Shown here: one piece after another, positions 700-52,075 of the stretch
Position numbering within the stretch: the first letter of the stretch is position 1
Layout: every line of letters begins with the position of its first letter
IMG/VR virus record: IMGVR_UViG_3300032038_006680
Coordinates: 17,264-81,263 of that record
Direction: 5' to 3' (one strand)
DNA length: 64,000 nucleotides
Source of the DNA: a virus
Lineage: Duplodnaviria > Caudoviricetes
The notes under the pieces: model-generated
What the model was told of the DNA's origin: nothing
The model's input: the letters and a program-made list of their open reading frames with translations, nothing else
The model's database searches: none
Position numbers and translations under genes: made by a program

Positions 700-1239
700 A
701 TGAACGAGAAAAACATTCAGACGATAGCAATGGAAGAAATATGGGCAAGGACAACGGACGGGCATATTCCCGTCCTTCTTGAGATTTATAACCCTGACAT
801 AAAGTGGGACGATGGTTCCGTTGAGCAGGAGAATATGTATCTCAGGGTTATAGACGACTCAAATCCTGTCGTTTACAAAGGAAAGAAGTACCTGCCTGCC
901 AGCTTTGAGTTCACGCCTCCCGAAGAGGACGGAAAAACAGTCGGACAGGCATCGATAACCCTGTCCGCGATAGATTCCCGCGTGGTCCAGATGCTCCGTT
1001 CTATAGAGTTGCAATGTGAAGTCACTGTAATGGCGGCTTTCGCAAAGCTCGTCAATGAGAACGGAAAGACGACTTTCAGGTTCTATCCCCTTGACCAGAT
1101 AAAAACCCGTATGCCGTCAGCGACTTACAACCGCACGACGGCTCAGCTGAGCCTCGTCTATAAAGATGTTTTGAAGCTGAATGTCCCAAGAGACAAGGCA
1201 ACCAAAAATCAGCTTTCGTCGGTGAGTGAGAATGGCTGA
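700..1239 (+). CDS. Minor tail protein (gpL/DUF1833-like)
   Basis: LLEIYNP...LRVIDDSNPVVYKGKKYLPASFEFTPPEEDG...ASITLSAID pattern; synteny between gpM-like and NlpC/P60 genes. Confidence 0.7.
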   Translation: MNEKNIQTIAMEEIWARTTDGHIPVLLEIYNPDIKWDDGSVEQENMYLRVIDDSNPVVYKGKKYLPASFEFTPPEEDGKTVGQASITLSAIDSRVVQMLRSIELQCEVTVMAAFAKLVNENGKTTFRFYPLDQIKTRMPSATYNRTTAQLSLVYKDVLKLNVPRDKATKNQLSSVSENG

Positions 1240-1627: not shown

Positions 1628-4600
1628 GGATTCTTAACAACATTCTTGAGGATAAAGTTGACACATTCACTGTGGAGAAAGGCATTACCATTGAGACCCT
1701 TATCAGGGAGCATACTGACGGGAACGCCTATGACGGACAGCTGGTGGAATGTTATGACCTTGATACGGGAGAGACATATTTTGCCCCTATCGAAGACGAT
1801 ACCGCGACAACGAATGCGATTGTCCAGGTAAACGGAAAGGACACATCTCTTGATTATGTAATAAAAGAAAATGACATTGTTTCTGTAATCATAACACCAG
1901 CAGGCGGCGGCGGAGGATGGAATTGGACAACGGCATTGCTTGGAGGAATTGAAGGTGCTCTAACAGGAGCTTTAATTGGTTTTCAAGTAGGCGGCCCTAT
2001 AGGTGCAGTTATAGGTGGGGTAATAGGTTTTGTTGTTGGTTTTGCTGTTTTTGGAAGTTTAGGGGGGATGGATTTAAATACTGACGACCAGACTTCTTCA
2101 TCTGGTTTAAATTCAGAGCAGCTTCCCGATGTCCGCGGCTCACAGAATCAGCCTCTTACAGATCAGCCCTACCCTATGGTTCTCGGAAAACATCTCGTCA
2201 CGCCTTTTATAATCGGAAGCCCGTGGAATGAGATTTCTGGCAATCACGGTGAGGATAACTGTATTCATATCCTATATGCCGTTGGTTACGCTCCGCTTCG
2301 TCTTACGGAATTCAAGCTCGGAGAGATGGACTTGGCTCACAATCAGCCTTGGAGCGGCAATAAAAATCTTAAAAACATTTTTCATGGCGAGCTAAGCGGA
2401 ATTGACAGTCAGACTGGCTCAGGAAGTGACACGGGCGATATTGTAAGCACATGGAAAAACAATGACATCTCCATAGAGATTCTTCAGCAGGGACAGAACA
2501 GACAGGCGGTTGATTGCGGAAATATCTACCCATACGCGAAAATCCAGGAAGACATAAAGGCTAATGTCCTTTACATTGCCGACGGTTCGATTGAGGAAAT
2601 TGACAGTGCGAACAATATTTCTTATAAAGGGCTGGGACTTGCCAACGGTCTCAGAAATAATCCGATAAGATTCTCCGAACAGTATGCAGACTCAGTAAAG
2701 GTTGAGCTTGATTTCCAGAACGGACTTTATAAGACGAGAAGCGAAACAAGCGGAAGCAATTCTTCTGTCAAATACTACCAGATTCCTATGTGGATTGCGG
2801 TTCAGTGGCGGGTGTATTCTGATGACAATGTAAAGACAGACGGAGATGAGCACGGAACGGGAGTTCCGCTTCCTGAATTTGATTATGATAAGGGCGTATA
2901 CAAGAAAGTCACCGTAAAGAATAAGGACGGGAATGATGTTACGGGAGATTTCCGAGGCTGGCACTCGTTTGAAAAGATAAATAATATCGTTGTTGCCGAG
3001 GAATTTACAGAAGAGAAACGCTATAATGATATTGCCGCTCATTCAGGAAATCATTTAAGAAACAATAAGATAGCGACATCCTCACATGAGGAAGAATATT
3101 GGGTAGATGATGGAATTGTTTGCGGGGAGCAAACCGGTCATTATGAAAAAGAACTTGTAATTGACAGCTGGGGGTATTCGGCTGACATAAACAATAATTG
3201 GTTAGGGGCAGATGTCTTTAATTTGCAGTCGCTTGGCGGAACGAATTCCAATCAGGACGGCATAAACGAATTCCGCTGCGTTACAGATGTTAACCTCGTT
3301 CAGTGGGCGAATGATAATCTGCTCACAGAGGAAGAGAAGTCGAGCCCGAATAAAGATGAGATACTGTCAAAAAAATTCAGGGCATACTTCTATGACGGAT
3401 TCAACACGGCAAAGTCTATTGAGGTTCGTGTAGTAAGGGTTTCTCCTTGCTATATAGATGAGACGGTCTCAAACAAGGACCATTCGGCGTTTAAGTTCAA
3501 TGATATTTTTACATGGACTACCCTCACATCGACAAAACTGGACGGCGACAAGCTTGTATACGAAAATACCATAGAGAGGCTGAGACCGATTTCAGAAGAC
3601 CGAATGAGGAAACTTTGCGTCATCGCGCTCAAGGCAAAGACTGACAATGTGGACCAACTTTCAAATACGCTCAAGAAATTCTCATGTATCGCACAGTCGT
3701 TCGCACCTTACTATAACGATGAGGAAAAGAAATGGCTGCCTGAAAAAGTCAGCACGACGACGAGATATTACAAGCCATCATACAAGGATGAGAGCGGTGT
3801 ATGGTATCAAGGCGAAGAAATTACAAAACAGCAGTTTGAAGAGGACAGACAGAAAGGCATTAAATCCTTGCGTATGCCTGCGGGGAATGACTATGTTCCG
3901 CAGATTGTCGAGAATGTGATACGGACAGCGGAGCATATTGACGACAGGGGAAGATATTATATCCCTGACCAGCTTGACGAGAACGGAGTCCATTACAGTC
4001 CTGACGGCACGCTTAAATACTGTAATAACAATGTCGCCTCTATGTTCCTCCTTGCGGGTATAGGACCTCATCTCGGAATCGACGCGCTGGGATATAACCA
4101 GAAATTCTATGACGAAAACGGAAATCTGATTGAGGACGGCGCGGGAGACTTCAATATGGTTTCTCTTGCCAAGTGGTACAAGTGGGCCGAGGATGTCACT
4201 GATAAATCGACTTATTCTTCGGACGGATCGCACTACGACCATGACGGAAGAAGCGTATTGCACGGCAAGGGTGAATTGGTTCACATGTATTTTGCGGCAA
4301 ACGCATATATCTATCAGGAGATAATGCTTGAGCAAATGCTCGCAAAGATTGCCGTCGCAGGCCGAGCCGTATATACGAGAGACAGCAAGAACAGGCTTAC
4401 GGTCGTTATAGATAAAGAAGAGAAATACCCTGTAGCCCTTATAAATCAGCAGAACACGCTCAAATCGACTTATACGATTTCTTTTGCCGACAATCCTTCG
4501 GGTATGCAGATTACCTTCCCTGATGAGAACGACGGTTACATTCAGAATCAGATTTACTGTATGGCTGACGGAGAAAGCGCGGACAAGCCGCGGGCGGCGA

Positions 4601-16707: not shown

Positions 16708-17346
16708 ATGACAGAAAATGATTTTTTGCTTCAGGACCGAATAGCAAAAATCAAATCAATCAACGAGCAGGAAAATGTAATAGGTGAAGTTTGGAAAAAA
16801 TGCGTTGACTATGAAGATTTGTATCTAATTTCAAATAAGGGGCGAATAAAAAGTGTCCCTAGAACCATTGAATTTATAAAATATGGGAAAAAATATAGTC
16901 GTAAAGTTTACGAAAGAATTTTGAAACTTAATAAACAATTTAATGGATATTTATCAGTTACAGTTTCTAGTTCTAACTTCCCCAAAGGAAAAAAAGAATT
17001 AGTTCATCGTTTAGTTGCAAAAACTTTTATTCCTAATCCAAGTAACTTACCGTGTATAAACCATAAAGATGAATGTAAGTCAAATAATAGTGTAGAAAAT
17101 TTAGAATGGTGTGATAAAAGTTACAATGCATTATATGGAACATGTCAAGAAAGAGTTAAAAAACACAAAATAAAACCTGTATACATGCTTGATAAATCCA
17201 CTGAAAAGATTATTAAAAAATTCACATCTATTTCAGACGCTGCTAAAGAAACTGGTGCTCAAATTGCAAATATAAGTGCAGTGGCTCGTGGGCGTGCAAA
17301 AACTGCTTGTGGTTATAAATGGAAATATGCAAATAAAGAGGAATAA
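16708..17346 (+). CDS. NUMOD4-HNH-NUMOD1 homing endonuclease
   Basis: EVWKKCVDYEDLYLISNKGRIKS (NUMOD4), VHRLVAKTF...INHKDECKSNNSVENLEW (HNH), KFTSISDAAKETG (NUMOD1); AT-rich; ATG at 16708 after CAGGAG. Confidence 0.9.
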   Translation: MTENDFLLQDRIAKIKSINEQENVIGEVWKKCVDYEDLYLISNKGRIKSVPRTIEFIKYGKKYSRKVYERILKLNKQFNGYLSVTVSSSNFPKGKKELVHRLVAKTFIPNPSNLPCINHKDECKSNNSVENLEWCDKSYNALYGTCQERVKKHKIKPVYMLDKSTEKIIKKFTSISDAAKETGAQIANISAVARGRAKTACGYKWKYANKEE

Positions 17347-17353
17347 AAAAGAA

Positions 17354-18268
17354 ATGACAGAAAATGAATTTATATTATCTGACAGAATAGCAAAAATACA
17401 AAGCATAAACGCCATATATGGCTTAGAGCATAATGCTTATGTTTCGTTTTCTGGCGGAAAGGATTCTACCGTGCTGCATTACCTTATTGATGAAGCTTTG
17501 CCTGGAAATAAAATACCAAGAGTATTTTTTAATACAGGCATTGAATATAAGGCAATTCTTTCTTTTGTAAGGGAAATGGCAGCAAAGGATGAACGCTTTG
17601 TCATTTATACTGTCGGTAAGAATATAAGGGAAACTTTACAGGCCGTAGGCTATCCATTTAAGTCAAAGGAACATTCTCAGAAACTCTATGAATGGAAAAG
17701 AGGAATACACAGTAAATCTCACCGCAAATATTTTAGGGAAGAAGCAGACGGTTTCTCTCCTTGTCCTAAAGCATTGATGTATCAGATACAGCCGGATTTC
17801 AATCTTAATATCTCTCACTTCTGTTGCTATGAGTTCAAAAAGAAGCCAGCGAAAGATTATTCTAAGGAAAGCGGCAGAAAAATCACTATTACGGGAATGA
17901 TGAAAGCAGAGGGAGGACAGAGAACTACCCTCAACTGCATTGTAACCGATTCAAAAAGCGGAAAAGTAAAAAAGTTTCACCCAATGGCAGTAGTTTCTCA
18001 GGAATGGGAAAACTGGTACATATCTCAGAAATCAATAAAGTTATGTGAATTGTATTACCCGCCTTATAGCTTTGAAAGGACAGGTTGTAAGGGCTGCCCT
18101 TACAACCTGCATTTACAGGAATACCTTGATACTCTTGAAAAAGCGCTGCCTGCTGAAAGAAAACAGTGTGAATTCATCTGGAAACCTGTTTATGACGAGT
18201 ACAGACGAATTGGCTACAGATTACGGAAAGAAGATAATCAGCCGTCTTTATTCGGAGGTCAGATATGA
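17354..18268 (+). CDS. PAPS-reductase-like (PP-loop) protein
   Basis: VSFSGGKDSTVL; FCC; RTGCKGCPY; probable ATG at 17354. Confidence 0.85.
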   Translation: MTENEFILSDRIAKIQSINAIYGLEHNAYVSFSGGKDSTVLHYLIDEALPGNKIPRVFFNTGIEYKAILSFVREMAAKDERFVIYTVGKNIRETLQAVGYPFKSKEHSQKLYEWKRGIHSKSHRKYFREEADGFSPCPKALMYQIQPDFNLNISHFCCYEFKKKPAKDYSKESGRKITITGMMKAEGGQRTTLNCIVTDSKSGKVKKFHPMAVVSQEWENWYISQKSIKLCELYYPPYSFERTGCKGCPYNLHLQEYLDTLEKALPAERKQCEFIWKPVYDEYRRIGYRLRKEDNQPSLFGGQI

Positions 18269-46674: not shown

Positions 46675-47580
46675 CTAAAAAATATCGTAATCCTGTTTTT
46701 CGTCAGTTAAAGCTAAATCAGCAAGCGATTCAGTTGTCAAATTATCCTTGACAGCTTCTTTTTCAGAGGAATCAATCTCTTCAAACTTTTTCTTTACCGT
46801 AAACGGATAAAGTTCTCCAGCCTTATCGTAAGCAGCCTTAACTCTTGGAATTAAATGTGGATAAATAGATAAGAGCCGTTCCCAACCGTGTCTATGCTGA
46901 ACCTCAATATGTTCGTAATGCGTCATACGAAGGAAATTCCAGACACAATTTCTTAAATCAGGTCTCTTAGATTTTGTTATTATATGACAAACTTCCAATG
47001 TACCGTCATTTATTCCGCTCGCCATTGATACATTGTTCCGTTCACACCATTCATCAATGGAAAGTAGATTTCCATCAGAATCGTAATCGCAGGGATTTCC
47101 TTCCCCTACAGAAGTCTCCCTTTTAAATTCTTGGAACAAATCTTTGACCTCAATTTGTTGTCTATCGTCTAAATCACAGTTTTCAATGATAAGAGCCATT
47201 ATGTTTGTAATAAACTGTGCGGCCTGCATTTTGCTCATTTTGGAAAGATGAACAGGTACTTCTCTTTCTGGGTGCAACAAGTCCGGCTCCCTATCCGCGT
47301 AATCCCACAAAAGAGACTCATACATTTTTTGATTTTCCTCACTGTTTGGTTTTCGGTCATAATTGCATTGAAAAAGAATTGAGCATAATGCAAAAACGGT
47401 CTTCACTTGGTCGTAAGTTTTGTTTCCCTTCGCTTTGTTTATCGTCACCGTTACGTACTGATTCTGAGCACCTTCACAAAAAGTGTTCAGAATAGACCGT
47501 TCAGAAGGAGTTGCAGGGAGTAAAAGAAAAGAGCCGTTTTCAAACTTGTGAGGTACAGCACGAATAACAATCTTACTCAT
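46675..47580 (-). CDS. Putative NinB/HNHc-like recombination nuclease
   Basis: KTYDQVK.VFAL; C-terminal LEVCHII...LRMTHYEHIEVQH. Confidence 0.5.
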   Translation of the reverse strand: MSKIVIRAVPHKFENGSFLLLPATPSERSILNTFCEGAQNQYVTVTINKAKGNKTYDQVKTVFALCSILFQCNYDRKPNSEENQKMYESLLWDYADREPDLLHPEREVPVHLSKMSKMQAAQFITNIMALIIENCDLDDRQQIEVKDLFQEFKRETSVGEGNPCDYDSDGNLLSIDEWCERNNVSMASGINDGTLEVCHIITKSKRPDLRNCVWNFLRMTHYEHIEVQHRHGWERLLSIYPHLIPRVKAAYDKAGELYPFTVKKKFEEIDSSEKEAVKDNLTTESLADLALTDEKQDYDIF

Positions 47581-48034
47581 TCACAACTCCTTCTGGTACA
47601 GTTATGTTTTTATATTTTAAGAAAGCATCCAGCTGCCAATCTTTAGAATGTTCATAAGTATAATCATAAATTAAATCTGGAGGGTAATTTAAAATTTCAC
47701 CCCATTTTATAGTTATTTTGCCAACACCTTTATAATATATTTTTCTTGAATTTCTTTTGTTATATCCTTGTTCTATCAATGTTATCCAGCAACAGTTTTT
47801 AGGCTCATAATTACCGTTTACATCAATCCTTTCTATGCTTAAATTATTTTTATAGCCATTTTCTAAAGCCCACTTTTTAAATGTTGGAAAATCGTTTTTC
47901 CATTCGTCGCACACCGAGATGCCTCTTTCACCATAATCCTTAAAACTTCTGTTCTTGGCACGATAACATCTATCTTTCATTCCGCACCAGATATTATATA
48001 ATTGCAACACTGCCCTTATAGATATTTTATTCAT
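47573..48034 (-). CDS. HNH homing endonuclease
   Basis: LYNIWCGMKDRC...YGERGISVCDEW...SIERIDVNGNYEPKNCCW...EQ..NKR. Confidence 0.85.
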   Translation of the reverse strand: MNKISIRAVLQLYNIWCGMKDRCYRAKNRSFKDYGERGISVCDEWKNDFPTFKKWALENGYKNNLSIERIDVNGNYEPKNCCWITLIEQGYNKRNSRKIYYKGVGKITIKWGEILNYPPDLIYDYTYEHSKDWQLDAFLKYKNITVPEGVVNE

Positions 48035-48042
48035 TTAACATG

Positions 48043-48130
48043 ATGATAATATATTTATTGTATATTGTAAATATCATTTGTATATTATTTTTATATTAAA
48101 TTGACAAAAACTATATAAATCCTGTATATT
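48043..48130. promoter_or_regulatory. Divergent promoters: TTTACA-N17-TATCAT (left) and TTGACA-N18-TATATT (right)
   Basis: Boxes at 48071-48066/48048-48043 and 48101-48106/48125-48130; repeated GTATAT/ATATAC. Confidence 0.6.
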
Positions 48131-48409
48131 ATGGGTATGGAAAAAAGACCAGTACAGCTTTATGTCGGAACTTATGACACGATTAACAAGCATAAGGGCG
48201 AGAAGAATATCGCGACATTCATTGATGATGCCGTGAATTATTATATTATGTCAGACGGAAATCAGAGCGAGCTGAAAAAGATAAACGAGCGTTTAGCTGT
48301 AATCAGCGAAAGGCAGGACACCATACTTGGCTTGAACTGCGAGGTTCTCCGTCAGGCCGGAATCCTAAACGGGAACGGTGAGATTGATTTTTTGAAGAAA
48401 AAAGGTTAA
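48131..48409 (+). CDS. RHH-like regulator
   Basis: KRPVQLYVGTYDTI....NIATFIDDAVNYY; isolated plus-strand gene. Confidence 0.5.
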   Translation: MGMEKRPVQLYVGTYDTINKHKGEKNIATFIDDAVNYYIMSDGNQSELKKINERLAVISERQDTILGLNCEVLRQAGILNGNGEIDFLKKKG

Positions 48410-49186: not shown

Positions 49187-52075
49187 TTAATTCTCCCATT
49201 CATAGTCCGGTATATCATACCAAGCTATCGGATTTACTGTCTCATACGACAAATCAGATACCCACTCTCTATTAGTAAAGTCATAGTGCATCGGAGTTTT
49301 AGCTGTACCAAATACTTGGATTGAACACCGAGGTAACATAGGGTCAGCAGGGGGCAAGTCATTAGAATTTTTAGTCAGGTCATGCCATTTGATTGTCTCA
49401 TGCAGTTCCGAACATTTCATAAACCCCGCAACAAAAAGGTCTATAAAATCACTCAGGATACCTTCTGTAAGTATTACAAAACCTGCTCTTTTGGTGCAAC
49501 CATTTATGTACTCCCTTGCTAATTCTTTAATTTCTTCATCTGTCATCTTTAGCACTCCTTATCATGTTAAACTTTCCACACTTCGAACATCTCATGGATA
49601 CTCTCCTAAGTGTATTATTATAACTTATTGCACCACATTTAGTACACTTAAACGCAAACTTATTCATTCTCTCACCTCGCTATTTAAGAAATAGCTCTGC
49701 TTCTTCTACAAGCTTTTTAGACCATAAAAACTTGACTTTTCTTGTTTTGAACTTCATTTGTTACCTCCAAAATATATGTTAAAGTTTCTTAGAATTCTTG
49801 CTTTCTCTCGTTCAACTTCTCTTTCAAATTCTTTTGTTTCTCTTTCAAATTCTTCATCTTCAGCTTGTTTCTGTCTATAGTCATTTTCTTCCTCATCATC
49901 ATCTGAGTAATTATGTACACAATCACTGCATACTGTGAACTGATACCCATTCTTATTAACTGTGTAGTTGCCTGTTCTGCCACAGTCACAGCACGGCTTT
50001 AATCCGAAATAAGATGTAATTGTCATTTTCCTATCTCCTTCTCTTTCAATAAGTTCAATATCTTTTCTTTACAAGATAATTTCTTTTGTTCTTCAGTTTC
50101 ATTTGGAAAATTACATATACGAAGGTAACATGGACAGTAGCAACATGCATAGACATTAGTTGAGTCCGCAGTTCTCTCTGTTCTACCATGCCCTGTATAA
50201 AACTCAATGAGCTCTAACAAGTATTTATCATTTACTTCCATTATTCACTCCTCTGTTTTCGATTCTTTCTAAAAGTTCTGCTACTACATCAATCAGGACT
50301 TCATCATCAGTCCTGTCATATCTCGTATATTTCAATACGAGTTCTCTTGCTTCATCTTTAATCTGACTCTTTTCCAATTTCAACTCCGCAAGGTTTACCG
50401 TCCAAGAAGATATTATCATAAAACAATACATTCATAGTTTTCACATAACCGTTCACCATGACTGTATTGGCAGTAAAGTCAGTTATTAGTGAAGTCCACT
50501 CACCATCTTTTCTCTTTACCCATATTAAAGGCTCTTCGTAACTACGGTCTATTCTGTGTGAGTTGTAATTATCCAACCACCAGTCAATCAACTCTTCCGT
50601 ATCTTTGAAAGGACGATATTTTGAAACCTCAAACTCCATAGTCCTATTCCTCCTTTAAGAATTGCTCTGCTTCTGCACAAAGTTCATACCACAAGTCTGT
50701 ATATTCTTGGGGGTGTTCGGGGTCATACTCAGCCCTATTATTTACAAACTCCGAAAACTTTTTAATTATTTCTTTTGCTTTAGCAAGCTTATCCCTTGTA
50801 ACCTTGTGTTTATGCACTTCATCCGCAAGTAATCCCTGCAATCTTCCTATTTCATCTCTGCACCTCTGTAATTCAGATGCAAACTTTACATTTTCCTTGC
50901 AAATAATCTCAAAACCCTGCTGCGACACAGGGTCTTTAAGTGCCATGCTGATTCTGCTTTTCATTTCGTCTTTAGTCATTTTCTGTCTCCCTTTCTCTTG
51001 TCAAGGACTCTATAACAGATGCCTTACTGCAGGTTTCTGCAATTATTTCCTGAGGGCAGGTGCTGGGAGGGCAGAACATAGAAAGATAGGCTAAAGCCTC
51101 TTGCATTGTAGTGAACAATCTTGATTGCTTTCCTTCGAATTGTATCTCTGTTAAGTATCCGCCTTCGCACGAATGATAAATTATCTTAGGCATTTCTCCA
51201 CCTCGCTATTTTAAGAATTGCTCAGCTTGTTCTAAATCAGATACACGGTCATATTCTACAGAATACAGACAACTCAACAAGTCTCTGATTATCTCTTTTG
51301 CTTTGGTGAGTTGTTTCTGTGCTTTTACCGCAGCCTTAAAAGGCTTTCTACTTGTGCATTTATGTCGCCAATCAAAAGAACTATCTTTCCAATAATCTCT
51401 TGCCTTTTCTGCACCTTCTAATTTTTCTTTTAGTTCTGCATTTTCCTTTTCAAGGATTTCTACTCTATTTATCGCCTTATCGCACTCCTTTGATTGTTGC
51501 CGTAGTTTTCTATCTTGCGTTTTTATAAACCGTTCAAGTTCTGCAATCTTCTCAATCTTGCTATAGCCGAACTCTGCACCTTGTTGCCAAACCTTACTTA
51601 CATTGTCATACAATGACGGAGAGTATTCATTATACCACCATTCTTCTGCTTCTTTCTCAAACATAATTTACCTCTCTGATTCAGGCAAATCCTGAAGGTT
51701 ATGATTTCCGTCAAGAAAATCTTTCTTTTTTATCACAAAAAGATAAATCGTCATTTATTCACTCTCCTTTGGTGGTACAATTTCTTTCCAAGCACAAACT
51801 TGATTATTAAGATAATTTTCCCAACCTGTGTTACTGTGATAGCAGTCGATTACTATTTCATCTGATATAAGACAAACTAATACTTCATCTGTATCAAAAG
51901 GTAAATCTCCGTCTTTCACATAGTGTCATTCATTAGCCTTGTTATAGCCGAACTCTGCACCGTCTTTGAAAGCTTGTTCTCTTGCTTTTCTGTCTGTGTC
52001 CCACCCTTTCACATCGTCATACATACAAGATTCATAGTTTGTTATTCCGTATTCTTCTGCTTCTTTCTCAAACAT
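49187..52075 (-). CDS. Cluster of small AT-rich mosaic hypothetical genes (49187, 49754, 50023, 50228, 50358, 50644, 50972, 51206 and others)
   Basis: Overlapping ORFs sharing short modules (TKAKEII, EAEQFLK*, MFEKEAEE, GAEFGY). Confidence 0.55.
51755..52075 (-). pseudogene. MFEKEAEE-family gene with TGG>TGA at 51928-51926
   Basis: KANE*HYVKDGDLP versus KANEWHFVKDGDLP in paralog 35375..35719. Confidence 0.8.

Follow-up and report, generated by a model that had tools for sequence, protein, structure and literature searches.

The window analysed here is a stretch of 64 kb (64,000 nucleotides) from an 81-kb IMG/VR virus record, the completeness of which is estimated at 78%. Its genes have relatives in rumen and gut metagenomes and in Treponema MAGs. 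On the minus strand two ORFs lie head to tail, the first of 153 aa with the N-terminus MNKISIRAV and the second of 301 aa with the N-terminus MSKIVIRAV. The stop of the first, an endonuclease ORF, and the ATG of the second fall within an 8-base overlap. The features of the locus, named after the readings argued for below, are as follows.

48131..48409, plus strand: divergent gene of 92 aa, a left boundary of the locus that relatives conserve (homologs likewise placed in L003 and L033).
48043..48071, minus strand: promoter-like site consisting of TTTACA, a 17-base spacer and TATCAT (scan, 10 of 12 matches; aligns with relatives).
47573..48034, minus strand: fused ORF of 153 aa, made up of 9 remnant, 2 junction and 142 endonuclease codons.
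48008..48034, minus strand: upstream copy, read as the remnant of the resident gene's first 9 codons (MNKISIRAV) and now the start of the endonuclease ORF.
48003..48007, minus strand: junction bases TTGCA (5) between the remnant and the endonuclease homology, collinear also in the X3 contig.
47573..48002, minus strand: 3' part of an HNH-like free-standing homing endonuclease gene (PHROG 3377 and 374; comparison with P0206 and L033).
47587..47593, minus strand: ribosome-binding site GAAGGAG of the 301-aa gene, inside the last codons of the endonuclease and 6 bases before the ATG.
47554..47580, minus strand: downstream copy, the first 9 codons (MSKIVIRAV) of the functional gene, read as a 'spare start' linked to the endonuclease.
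46675..47580, minus strand: target or host gene of 301 aa, the first gene of a leftward operon (85 homologs, alignment).

A sequence-only reading of the window had pointed to this locus and had let the endonuclease ORF reach to 47555. The locus is the same, but that interval takes in the second copy of the start (47554..47580), and the endonuclease ORF itself occupies 47573..48034. The same reading had proposed that MNKISIRAV and MSKIVIRAV, identical at 7 of 9 residues, are duplicates, and this is borne out on both ORFs. The two starts also have 17 of 27 bases in common. When all pairs among the 229 window ORFs of at least 60 aa are compared (26,106 pairs), this adjacent pair is the only one with six of eight matches at residues 2-9, and the runner-up pair has five. 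The duplication of the gene start is real and chance is excluded as its source.

Each of the six shared residues other than Met is spelled with a different codon in the two copies, as had been remarked from the sequence. This divergence nevertheless lies within the normal variation among natural alleles of the 301-aa gene start, where 30% of pairs have an identity of 17/27 or less and 5.6% of pairs have all shared codons different. Deliberate recoding of the spare start at the 48 kb locus was considered and rejected as unproven, the codon divergence being ordinary allele divergence.

The family of the 301-aa gene reveals where the nine codons come from. It has 85 homologs, the consensus start of which is the peptide found on the endonuclease ORF: MNKISIRAV stands exactly at the N-terminus of 8 family members and M.KI.IRAV in 19. 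The upstream copy and the gene start of a distant relative (L034) are equal at 25 of 27 bases, while the start MSKIVIRAV also occurs in the three closest homologs of the 301-aa protein (P0001, P0208 and P0209). On the endonuclease side, PHROG HNH profiles match the 153-aa protein only from residue 10-12 onward, and the motif is absent, at the start or anywhere, from all 120 endonuclease homologs. Two observations had been named beforehand as speaking against a duplication, namely that HNH homologs elsewhere also begin M.KI.IRAV and that a nine-residue match of this kind is common by chance; the counts are 0 of 120 homologs for the former and a single pair among 26,106 for the latter. These comparisons show that the first nine codons are a copy of the host gene start and not endonuclease family sequence. 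A staggered-cut origin of the repeat, of the type that produces a TSD, is unlikely, as the upstream copy is consensus-like and the two copies are as distant as alleles of different lineages. The host gene product carries an invariant H..N..EH..H motif near residues 199-229 in the homolog alignment, and sequence searches of Pfam, PHROG, NCBIfam and the PDB gave no match for it.

About 40 loci of the host gene were collected from viral, metagenome and genome collections. The endonuclease is sporadic at this gene, being present in the window, in the X3 contig and in L033 and absent from about 35 of the loci. A comparison with relatives that do not carry the endonuclease had been proposed as a check, and in these approximately 35 loci a single copy of the start lies directly behind an AT-rich promoter-like region. 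Because the host gene start stands directly behind the promoter in the endonuclease-free relatives, the endonuclease is an insertion after codon 9. Along the host gene, no step in identity at the 5' end is visible against the closest endonuclease-free relatives; these are about 70% identical and are too distant for a step to be seen at the 48 kb locus.

The endonuclease ORF had been placed directly behind a promoter at 48043-48071, and the scan score of 10 of 12 matches and the alignment with relatives agree with this. In the window, 8 bases separate the end of the -10 box from the ATG, and a ribosome-binding site is lacking. The closest endonuclease-free subfamily is similar, with the -10 box ending 6-8 bases before the ATG and mostly no ribosome-binding site. 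Because the -10 box is so near the ATG and a ribosome-binding site is missing, the transcript from 48043..48071 is probably leaderless, as judged from these spacings. The functional gene retains an entire start in another spelling, preceded by a ribosome-binding site of its own, the equivalent of which in L033 is GGAGGG.

The window endonuclease matches PHROG 3377 and 374 ('HNH endonuclease') at E about 1e-42, and neither Pfam nor NCBIfam gave a match for the window copy, P0206 or the L033 copy. Its own lineage was not returned by searches of IMG/VR, where the best match is 50% identical, or of annotated phages, where the best matches reach about 70% over short stretches. A profile of the endonuclease family aligns with I-HmuI (1u3e) across the motif at a marginal E of 0.045. 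In this marginal alignment an invariant Arg (R69 of the window protein) takes the position of the catalytic 'DH' His of I-HmuI, and an invariant Gln (Q89) that of the metal-binding Asn; N80 and N92 of the window protein are invariant in the family too. The canonical HNH catalytic His and the Asn/His metal ligand are absent at the aligned positions. The AlphaFold model of the 153-aa fused protein has a pLDDT of 94. Its best match among solved structures is the HNH restriction enzyme PacI (3m7k; Z 6.2, rmsd 2.9 A over 80 residues), and the Gme HNH nicking enzyme is matched at Z 3.2, both values lying below the safe level. Foldseek with the full-length model against the PDB returned nothing below E 0.09. 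We describe the enzyme as HNH-like, not canonical HNH, and as a putative nuclease on the basis of its sequence and predicted fold.

The history of the window copy becomes clear from a close relative. P0206, the second member of the window endonuclease's 90% cluster, is 265 aa long and is identical to the window endonuclease at 135 of 142 shared residues (95%). It is encoded on a 4433-base contig from a different cattle sample (run X3, contig 9), together with P0001, a host gene 96% identical to that of the window. In place of the 9 remnant and 2 junction codons of the window, P0206 has 123 additional residues. Aligned to the window, the X3 contig shows 64 differences over 46675..48002 and 9 differences with 3 gap letters over 48003..48074, and at 48002|48003 it has 403 extra letters, comprising 368 coding and about 35 spacer bases. 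The endonuclease part of the window corresponds to codons 124-265 of the full-length form, beginning with the last base of codon 123. A contig of a further sample (X5) likewise parts from the window at 48002, and the X2 contigs match the window at 99% or more, none of them bridging 47903..48146.

Since a 95%-identical relative encodes 265 aa from a start of its own and carries 403 additional bases, the fusion in the window is a secondary deletion. This deletion of 403 bases joined the ATG of the remnant in frame to codon 124, and the first 123 endonuclease codons are gone. The long N-terminal part is common, almost residue for residue, to P0206, L033 (313 aa) and P0087, so the long form is ancestral. 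In the X3 contig, a remnant of the old start appears to lie upstream of the full-length endonuclease, going by the alignment coordinates and about 85% identity, and the order there appears to be promoter, remnant, spacer, full-length endonuclease, and then the spare start with the gene. This implies that the duplicated start belongs to the insertion, and that the 'captured start' arose from the later deletion.

What was lost can be read from the model of P0206 (AlphaFold, pLDDT 93), which has a three-helix (helix-turn-helix) module at residues 1-40, a zinc ribbon at 55-92, a linker helix, a core at 123-204 and a C-terminal helical module. Without residues 1-123, the window copy has neither the helix-turn-helix, the zinc ribbon and the linker helix nor the conserved HG loop. 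Most endonuclease homologs have a zinc ribbon (about 75 aa) before the conserved core, which the window protein does not. The DNA-binding modules expected of a complete homing endonuclease are therefore missing from the window copy. The window copy is best read as a truncated and decaying element, which is probably no longer site-specific and is probably translated from the old start. Since some members of the family measure only 145-157 aa, the truncated protein may retain activity.

The sequence-only reading had taken the capture of a host start for a strategy of the endonuclease. Under this explanation the enzyme is built to use the host promoter and start codon, and the 153-aa fusion is its working form. 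The fusion is indeed in frame with an intact ORF, the probably leaderless start makes an in-frame insert an easy route to translation, and the family members of 145-157 aa show that short forms exist. In addition, a complete NUMOD4/HNH_3 endonuclease at 16.7 kb in the same window lacks its own start codon and relies on a captured start. Against this stand the 95%-identical relative, whose 265-aa gene has its own start and 403 more bases, and the long N-terminal modules common to L033 and P0087, which make the long form ancestral. The deletion also took away the helix-turn-helix, the zinc ribbon and the conserved HG loop, and an in-frame result has a one-in-three chance of arising at random. 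We consider it unlikely that start capture is an adaptation, and as a strategy it is not supported as the design of this element.

An artefact would be another explanation, whether as a chance match, as a wrong start call or as an assembly error that mimics the 403-base deletion. The record is a metagenome assembly estimated to be 78% complete, and the short form is seen in one lineage only. However, the pair is the sole one of its kind among 26,106, the remnant equals the gene start of a distant relative at 25 of 27 bases, and a protein identical to the 153-aa one has been recorded from two contigs and several sources. There is also no repeat at the deletion point that could cause a collapse, and the source run contains all sampled words. 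An artefact is thus very improbable.

The gene, the endonuclease and 40 bases 5' of the ATG are all that the X3 contig and the window have in common; on both sides of this stretch their sequences are unlike. Because the homology ends at the stop of the gene and 40 bases 5' of the ATG, the two phages share a mosaic module. Their divergence is 12.5% in the remnant and promoter and 4.8% in the module (p = 0.008), a difference for which the faster evolution of non-coding DNA may suffice.

The third carrier at this host gene has a different layout. The endonuclease of L033 (313 aa) is of the same lineage, 52% identical and colinear to the stop, and it has the same 8-base overlap of stop and start as the window. 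A remnant or coding duplication was sought in L033 and none was found; the cassette lies between the promoter and the ribosome-binding site. From its sequence, the L033 layout is the ordinary position of a free-standing gene in the 5'-UTR.

The duplicated start is not confined to the 48 kb locus. A second element in the window has the following features.

16708..17416, plus strand: 16.7 kb element, with a 21-codon remnant (16708..16770) and a NUMOD4/HNH_3 endonuclease reaching to 17346.
From 17354, plus strand: spare start of a PAPS-reductase-like gene in the 16.7 kb element.

The two copies start at 16708 and 17354, and 15 of their 19 first residues are identical. The endonuclease is a complete NUMOD4/HNH_3/NUMOD1 protein fused to the remnant of the PAPS-reductase-like gene, and it is absent from 15 of 15 relatives of the locus. 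Up to and including codon 21 the remnant resembles the consensus. Compared with the endonuclease-free relative L133, the functional gene shows 70-76% identity over the first 120 bases, and beyond these 90-100% over most of its length and 76-86% near the 3' end. This step in identity indicates a chimeric gene, the signature expected when a gene end is replaced.

A survey of 58 IMG/VR loci of the same HNH-like family as the 48 kb enzyme, set against a swapped-peptide null, gave one further case of a duplicated start, L060. The target gene of L060 has 61 distinct relatives that share the start peptide, and of these only L060 and L193 carry an endonuclease. L060 and L193 may share descent and hence may not be independent. 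In both, the upstream remnant ends after codon 7, and the 59 distinct endonuclease-free relatives have neither remnant nor endonuclease; the remnant of L193 has lost its ATG. Leu6 is CTY in 2 of 2 linked functional copies and in 2 of 59 endonuclease-free copies (Fisher p = 0.003), and the L060 and L193 remnants keep the consensus TTG. This bias in spelling lends indirect support to a cut that distinguishes a sensitive from a resistant host gene end. Every time, it is the remnant that resembles the consensus and the functional start that is the variant. The earlier statement that a different HNH subfamily lies at 16.7 kb and that the architecture recurs is upheld, and it extends to another gene in L060 and L193, which are rumen phages.

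These loci bear on a further explanation, in which the repeat is purely a scar of recombination. The leftover start would then come from one illegitimate repair or module swap, with no homology arm, no resistant allele and no ongoing homing. One-sided illegitimate repair at microhomology is known in T4 (PMC2988022), truncated HNH remnants are common in phages (PMC12724721), the upstream neighbours differ between relatives and so point to mosaicism, and the codon divergence is that of ordinary alleles. A single accident, however, fits poorly with the same junction in two phages, L060 and L193, whose endonucleases are only 58% identical. It fits poorly also with the common polarity of four cases, in which the remnant is consensus-like, the functional copy is the variant and the changes lie next to the junction. 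The chimeric gene at 16.7 kb and the greater divergence of window and X3 contig at the remnant likewise argue against it. A scar alone is improbable in our judgment, if somewhat less so than an adaptive capture of the start.

We favor a splice-free homing element that inserted after codon 9 with a WHO-like spare start and later underwent the 403-base deletion, and we regard this reading as reasonably probable. The element would consist of an HNH-like endonuclease gene together with an allelic 'spare' copy of the host gene start and its ribosome-binding site. Since the spare start is linked to the endonuclease, the host gene would stay whole without splicing. The first arrival would have made an illegitimate, one-sided left junction, because leaderless-type recipients have no match to the donor's left flank upstream of the ATG. 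Of the old resident start, 27 bases would have stayed behind the promoter as the remnant. If the WHO elements of yeasts are a guide, the enzyme would cut element-free alleles near codons 9-11, the left homology arm would be formed by the remnant and promoter and the right one by the gene body, and the spare start would be the uncut allele. The later 403-base deletion removed the spacer and the first 123 codons and brought the remnant ATG to codon 124. The 'target repair' suggested by the sequence-only reading finds support in this sense, as a WHO-like spare gene start, but not as deliberate recoding, the divergence of the two copies being allele variation.

More broadly, the four loci could represent a counterpart of the WHO element in rumen phages. 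HNH-type genes would invade the first 7-21 codons of a host gene and bring a resistant spare start, and the remnant would act as the left arm and mark the cleavage site, with two unrelated endonuclease families and at least three host genes involved. We offer this generalization tentatively, as plausible and somewhat short of probable. To our knowledge, homing elements within coding sequences are generally regarded as being either introns or inteins, and the WHO elements of yeasts have been described as a rare third way, or 'third category', beside these two. The loci studied here suggest that the same trick is used in phages, at the opposite end of the gene, with another type of enzyme and repeatedly. 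If this is true, some annotations of the type 'HNH next to a gene' hide short duplicated gene starts, and the duplicated starts provide a map of endonuclease cleavage sites from sequence alone. Mosaic borders and the chimeric 5' ends of phage genes would also be explained. The 48 kb locus itself is best read as a step of decay, in which a truncated enzyme is kept open by in-frame fusion to an abandoned start codon, and gene callers would read the fused ORF as an ordinary small HNH gene.

In the literature searched, the coverage of which was incomplete, we found no phage homing endonuclease described as being flanked by a duplicated gene start; several known systems share part of the layout. 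Truncated HNH remnants are familiar in phages, the count in lactococcal Skunavirus being 56 of 268 (PMC12724721). The window copy resembles these in being a partly deleted form of a complete endonuclease gene. It differs in its in-frame fusion to a leftover host start, with the ORF open and probably translated. HEG ORFs of fungal mitochondria (atp6, cob; PMC6279837) are often degenerate and are flanked by a partial duplicate of the host gene end, as here, but the duplication is at the 3' (C-terminal) end, the setting is an organelle and the enzymes are LAGLIDADG or GIY-YIG.

The free-standing endonucleases of T4-type phages (Seg, Mob; 'intronless homing', PMC2988022) are another such system. 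They too are sporadic genes between or beside conserved genes, and the likeness extends to the cutting of the neighbour gene that we infer for genomes without the element, to flanking co-conversion and to mosaic borders (compare PMC10448857). The L033 copy has exactly this ordinary layout. One-sided illegitimate junctions, of the kind proposed here for the first arrival, occur in intron homing of T4 (PMC2988022). The difference is that the T4-type genes lie between genes and a duplicated gene start is not described for them in the papers searched, whereas the insertion studied here lies inside coding sequence and has left a remnant start behind.

WHO elements are found at FBA1 in Torulaspora and Lachancea yeasts (Coughlan et al. 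2020, PMC7282813; Osborne et al. 2026 preprint, 10.64898/2026.08.13.744650). On insertion, such an element supplies its own variant of one host gene end, and the displaced original persists as a fragment and acts as a homology arm (PMC7282813). A layout of this type, with fragment, endonuclease and functional end, is present at the 48 kb and 16.7 kb loci and in L060 and L193. As in WHO, the endonuclease gene adjoins the host gene, one end of which is replaced by an allelic variant so that splicing is unneeded; the old end survives as a fragment beyond the endonuclease gene, and elements and fragments later decay. The host gene also turns chimeric, in our case at 16.7 kb. There are differences as well. 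The polarity is mirrored, as here the 5' end with the start codon is replaced and in WHO the 3' half, and the duplicated piece is only 7-21 codons long. A spare start must also bring its own ribosome-binding site, and cutting is in our case inferred from sequence. The host is a phage instead of a yeast nucleus, and the enzyme is HNH-like, whereas the WHO protein is LAGLIDADG/intein-derived with a zinc finger. Because its enzyme is HNH-like, the phage element would work like a WHO element without being a member of the WHO family. The closest known system is the yeast WHO element, which the phage layout mirrors.

Over the first 120 bases, the PAPS-reductase-like gene (window 17354..17473, + strand) shares 70-76% identity with its relative in L133, a locus without an endonuclease gene (2501..2620), whereas most of the remainder is 90-100% identical. 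This difference in identity marks the 5' end of the gene as a foreign allele. A repeated N-terminus is also found elsewhere in the window, in a group of three small ORFs:

51206..51664, - strand: 152-aa ORF, its N-terminus matched by the 49-aa ORF
51755..51919, - strand: 54-aa ORF lying between the other two
51926..52075, - strand: 49-aa ORF, its N-terminus repeating that of the 152-aa ORF

The 49-aa and 152-aa ORFs are identical at residues 1-8, and both contain a GAEFGY motif. They may represent a further partial gene-start duplication flanking a small insert, or they may be paralogs.

Candidate expression signals accompany the endonuclease genes in L033, a relative with a full-length endonuclease, and in L060 and L193, two other rumen phages with the MACEFL-type target:

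L033 2014..2053: terminator-like hairpin with a 12-bp stem and a T run after it
L060 2388..2416: predicted endonuclease promoter, consensus TTGACA-17-TATAAT
L193 about 822..850: predicted endonuclease promoter

The L033 hairpin, immediately 5' of the ribosome-binding site of the endonuclease gene, may limit its read-through expression. In L060 and L193, where the endonuclease genes have predicted promoters of their own, the native ribosome-binding site is retained beside the remnant of the old gene start. The functional copy begins 4 bases after the endonuclease stop with no obvious ribosome-binding site there, and so may require translational coupling.

The site upstream of the 301-aa host gene family seems to be an insertion hotspot, since two relatives hold other cargo there, just upstream of the gene:

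L018 1769..2872: integrase-like ORF, 367 aa
L017 2836..2970: helix-turn-helix-like fragment, 44 aa

In the window, the host gene is the first of its operon and adjoins a small divergent gene of 92 aa, which has a strong promoter-like site:

48101..48137, + strand: TTGACA, 18-base spacer, TATATT (11/12 matches)

The ATG of the divergent gene begins one base past the end of this site; a second ATG in the gene, at 48137, is a possible leaderless start. Though the family of the host gene (46675..47580, - strand) has no match in Pfam, PHROG, NCBIfam or PDB sequences, its invariant H199, N215, E223, H224 and H229, close to the C-terminus, form an HNH-looking motif.
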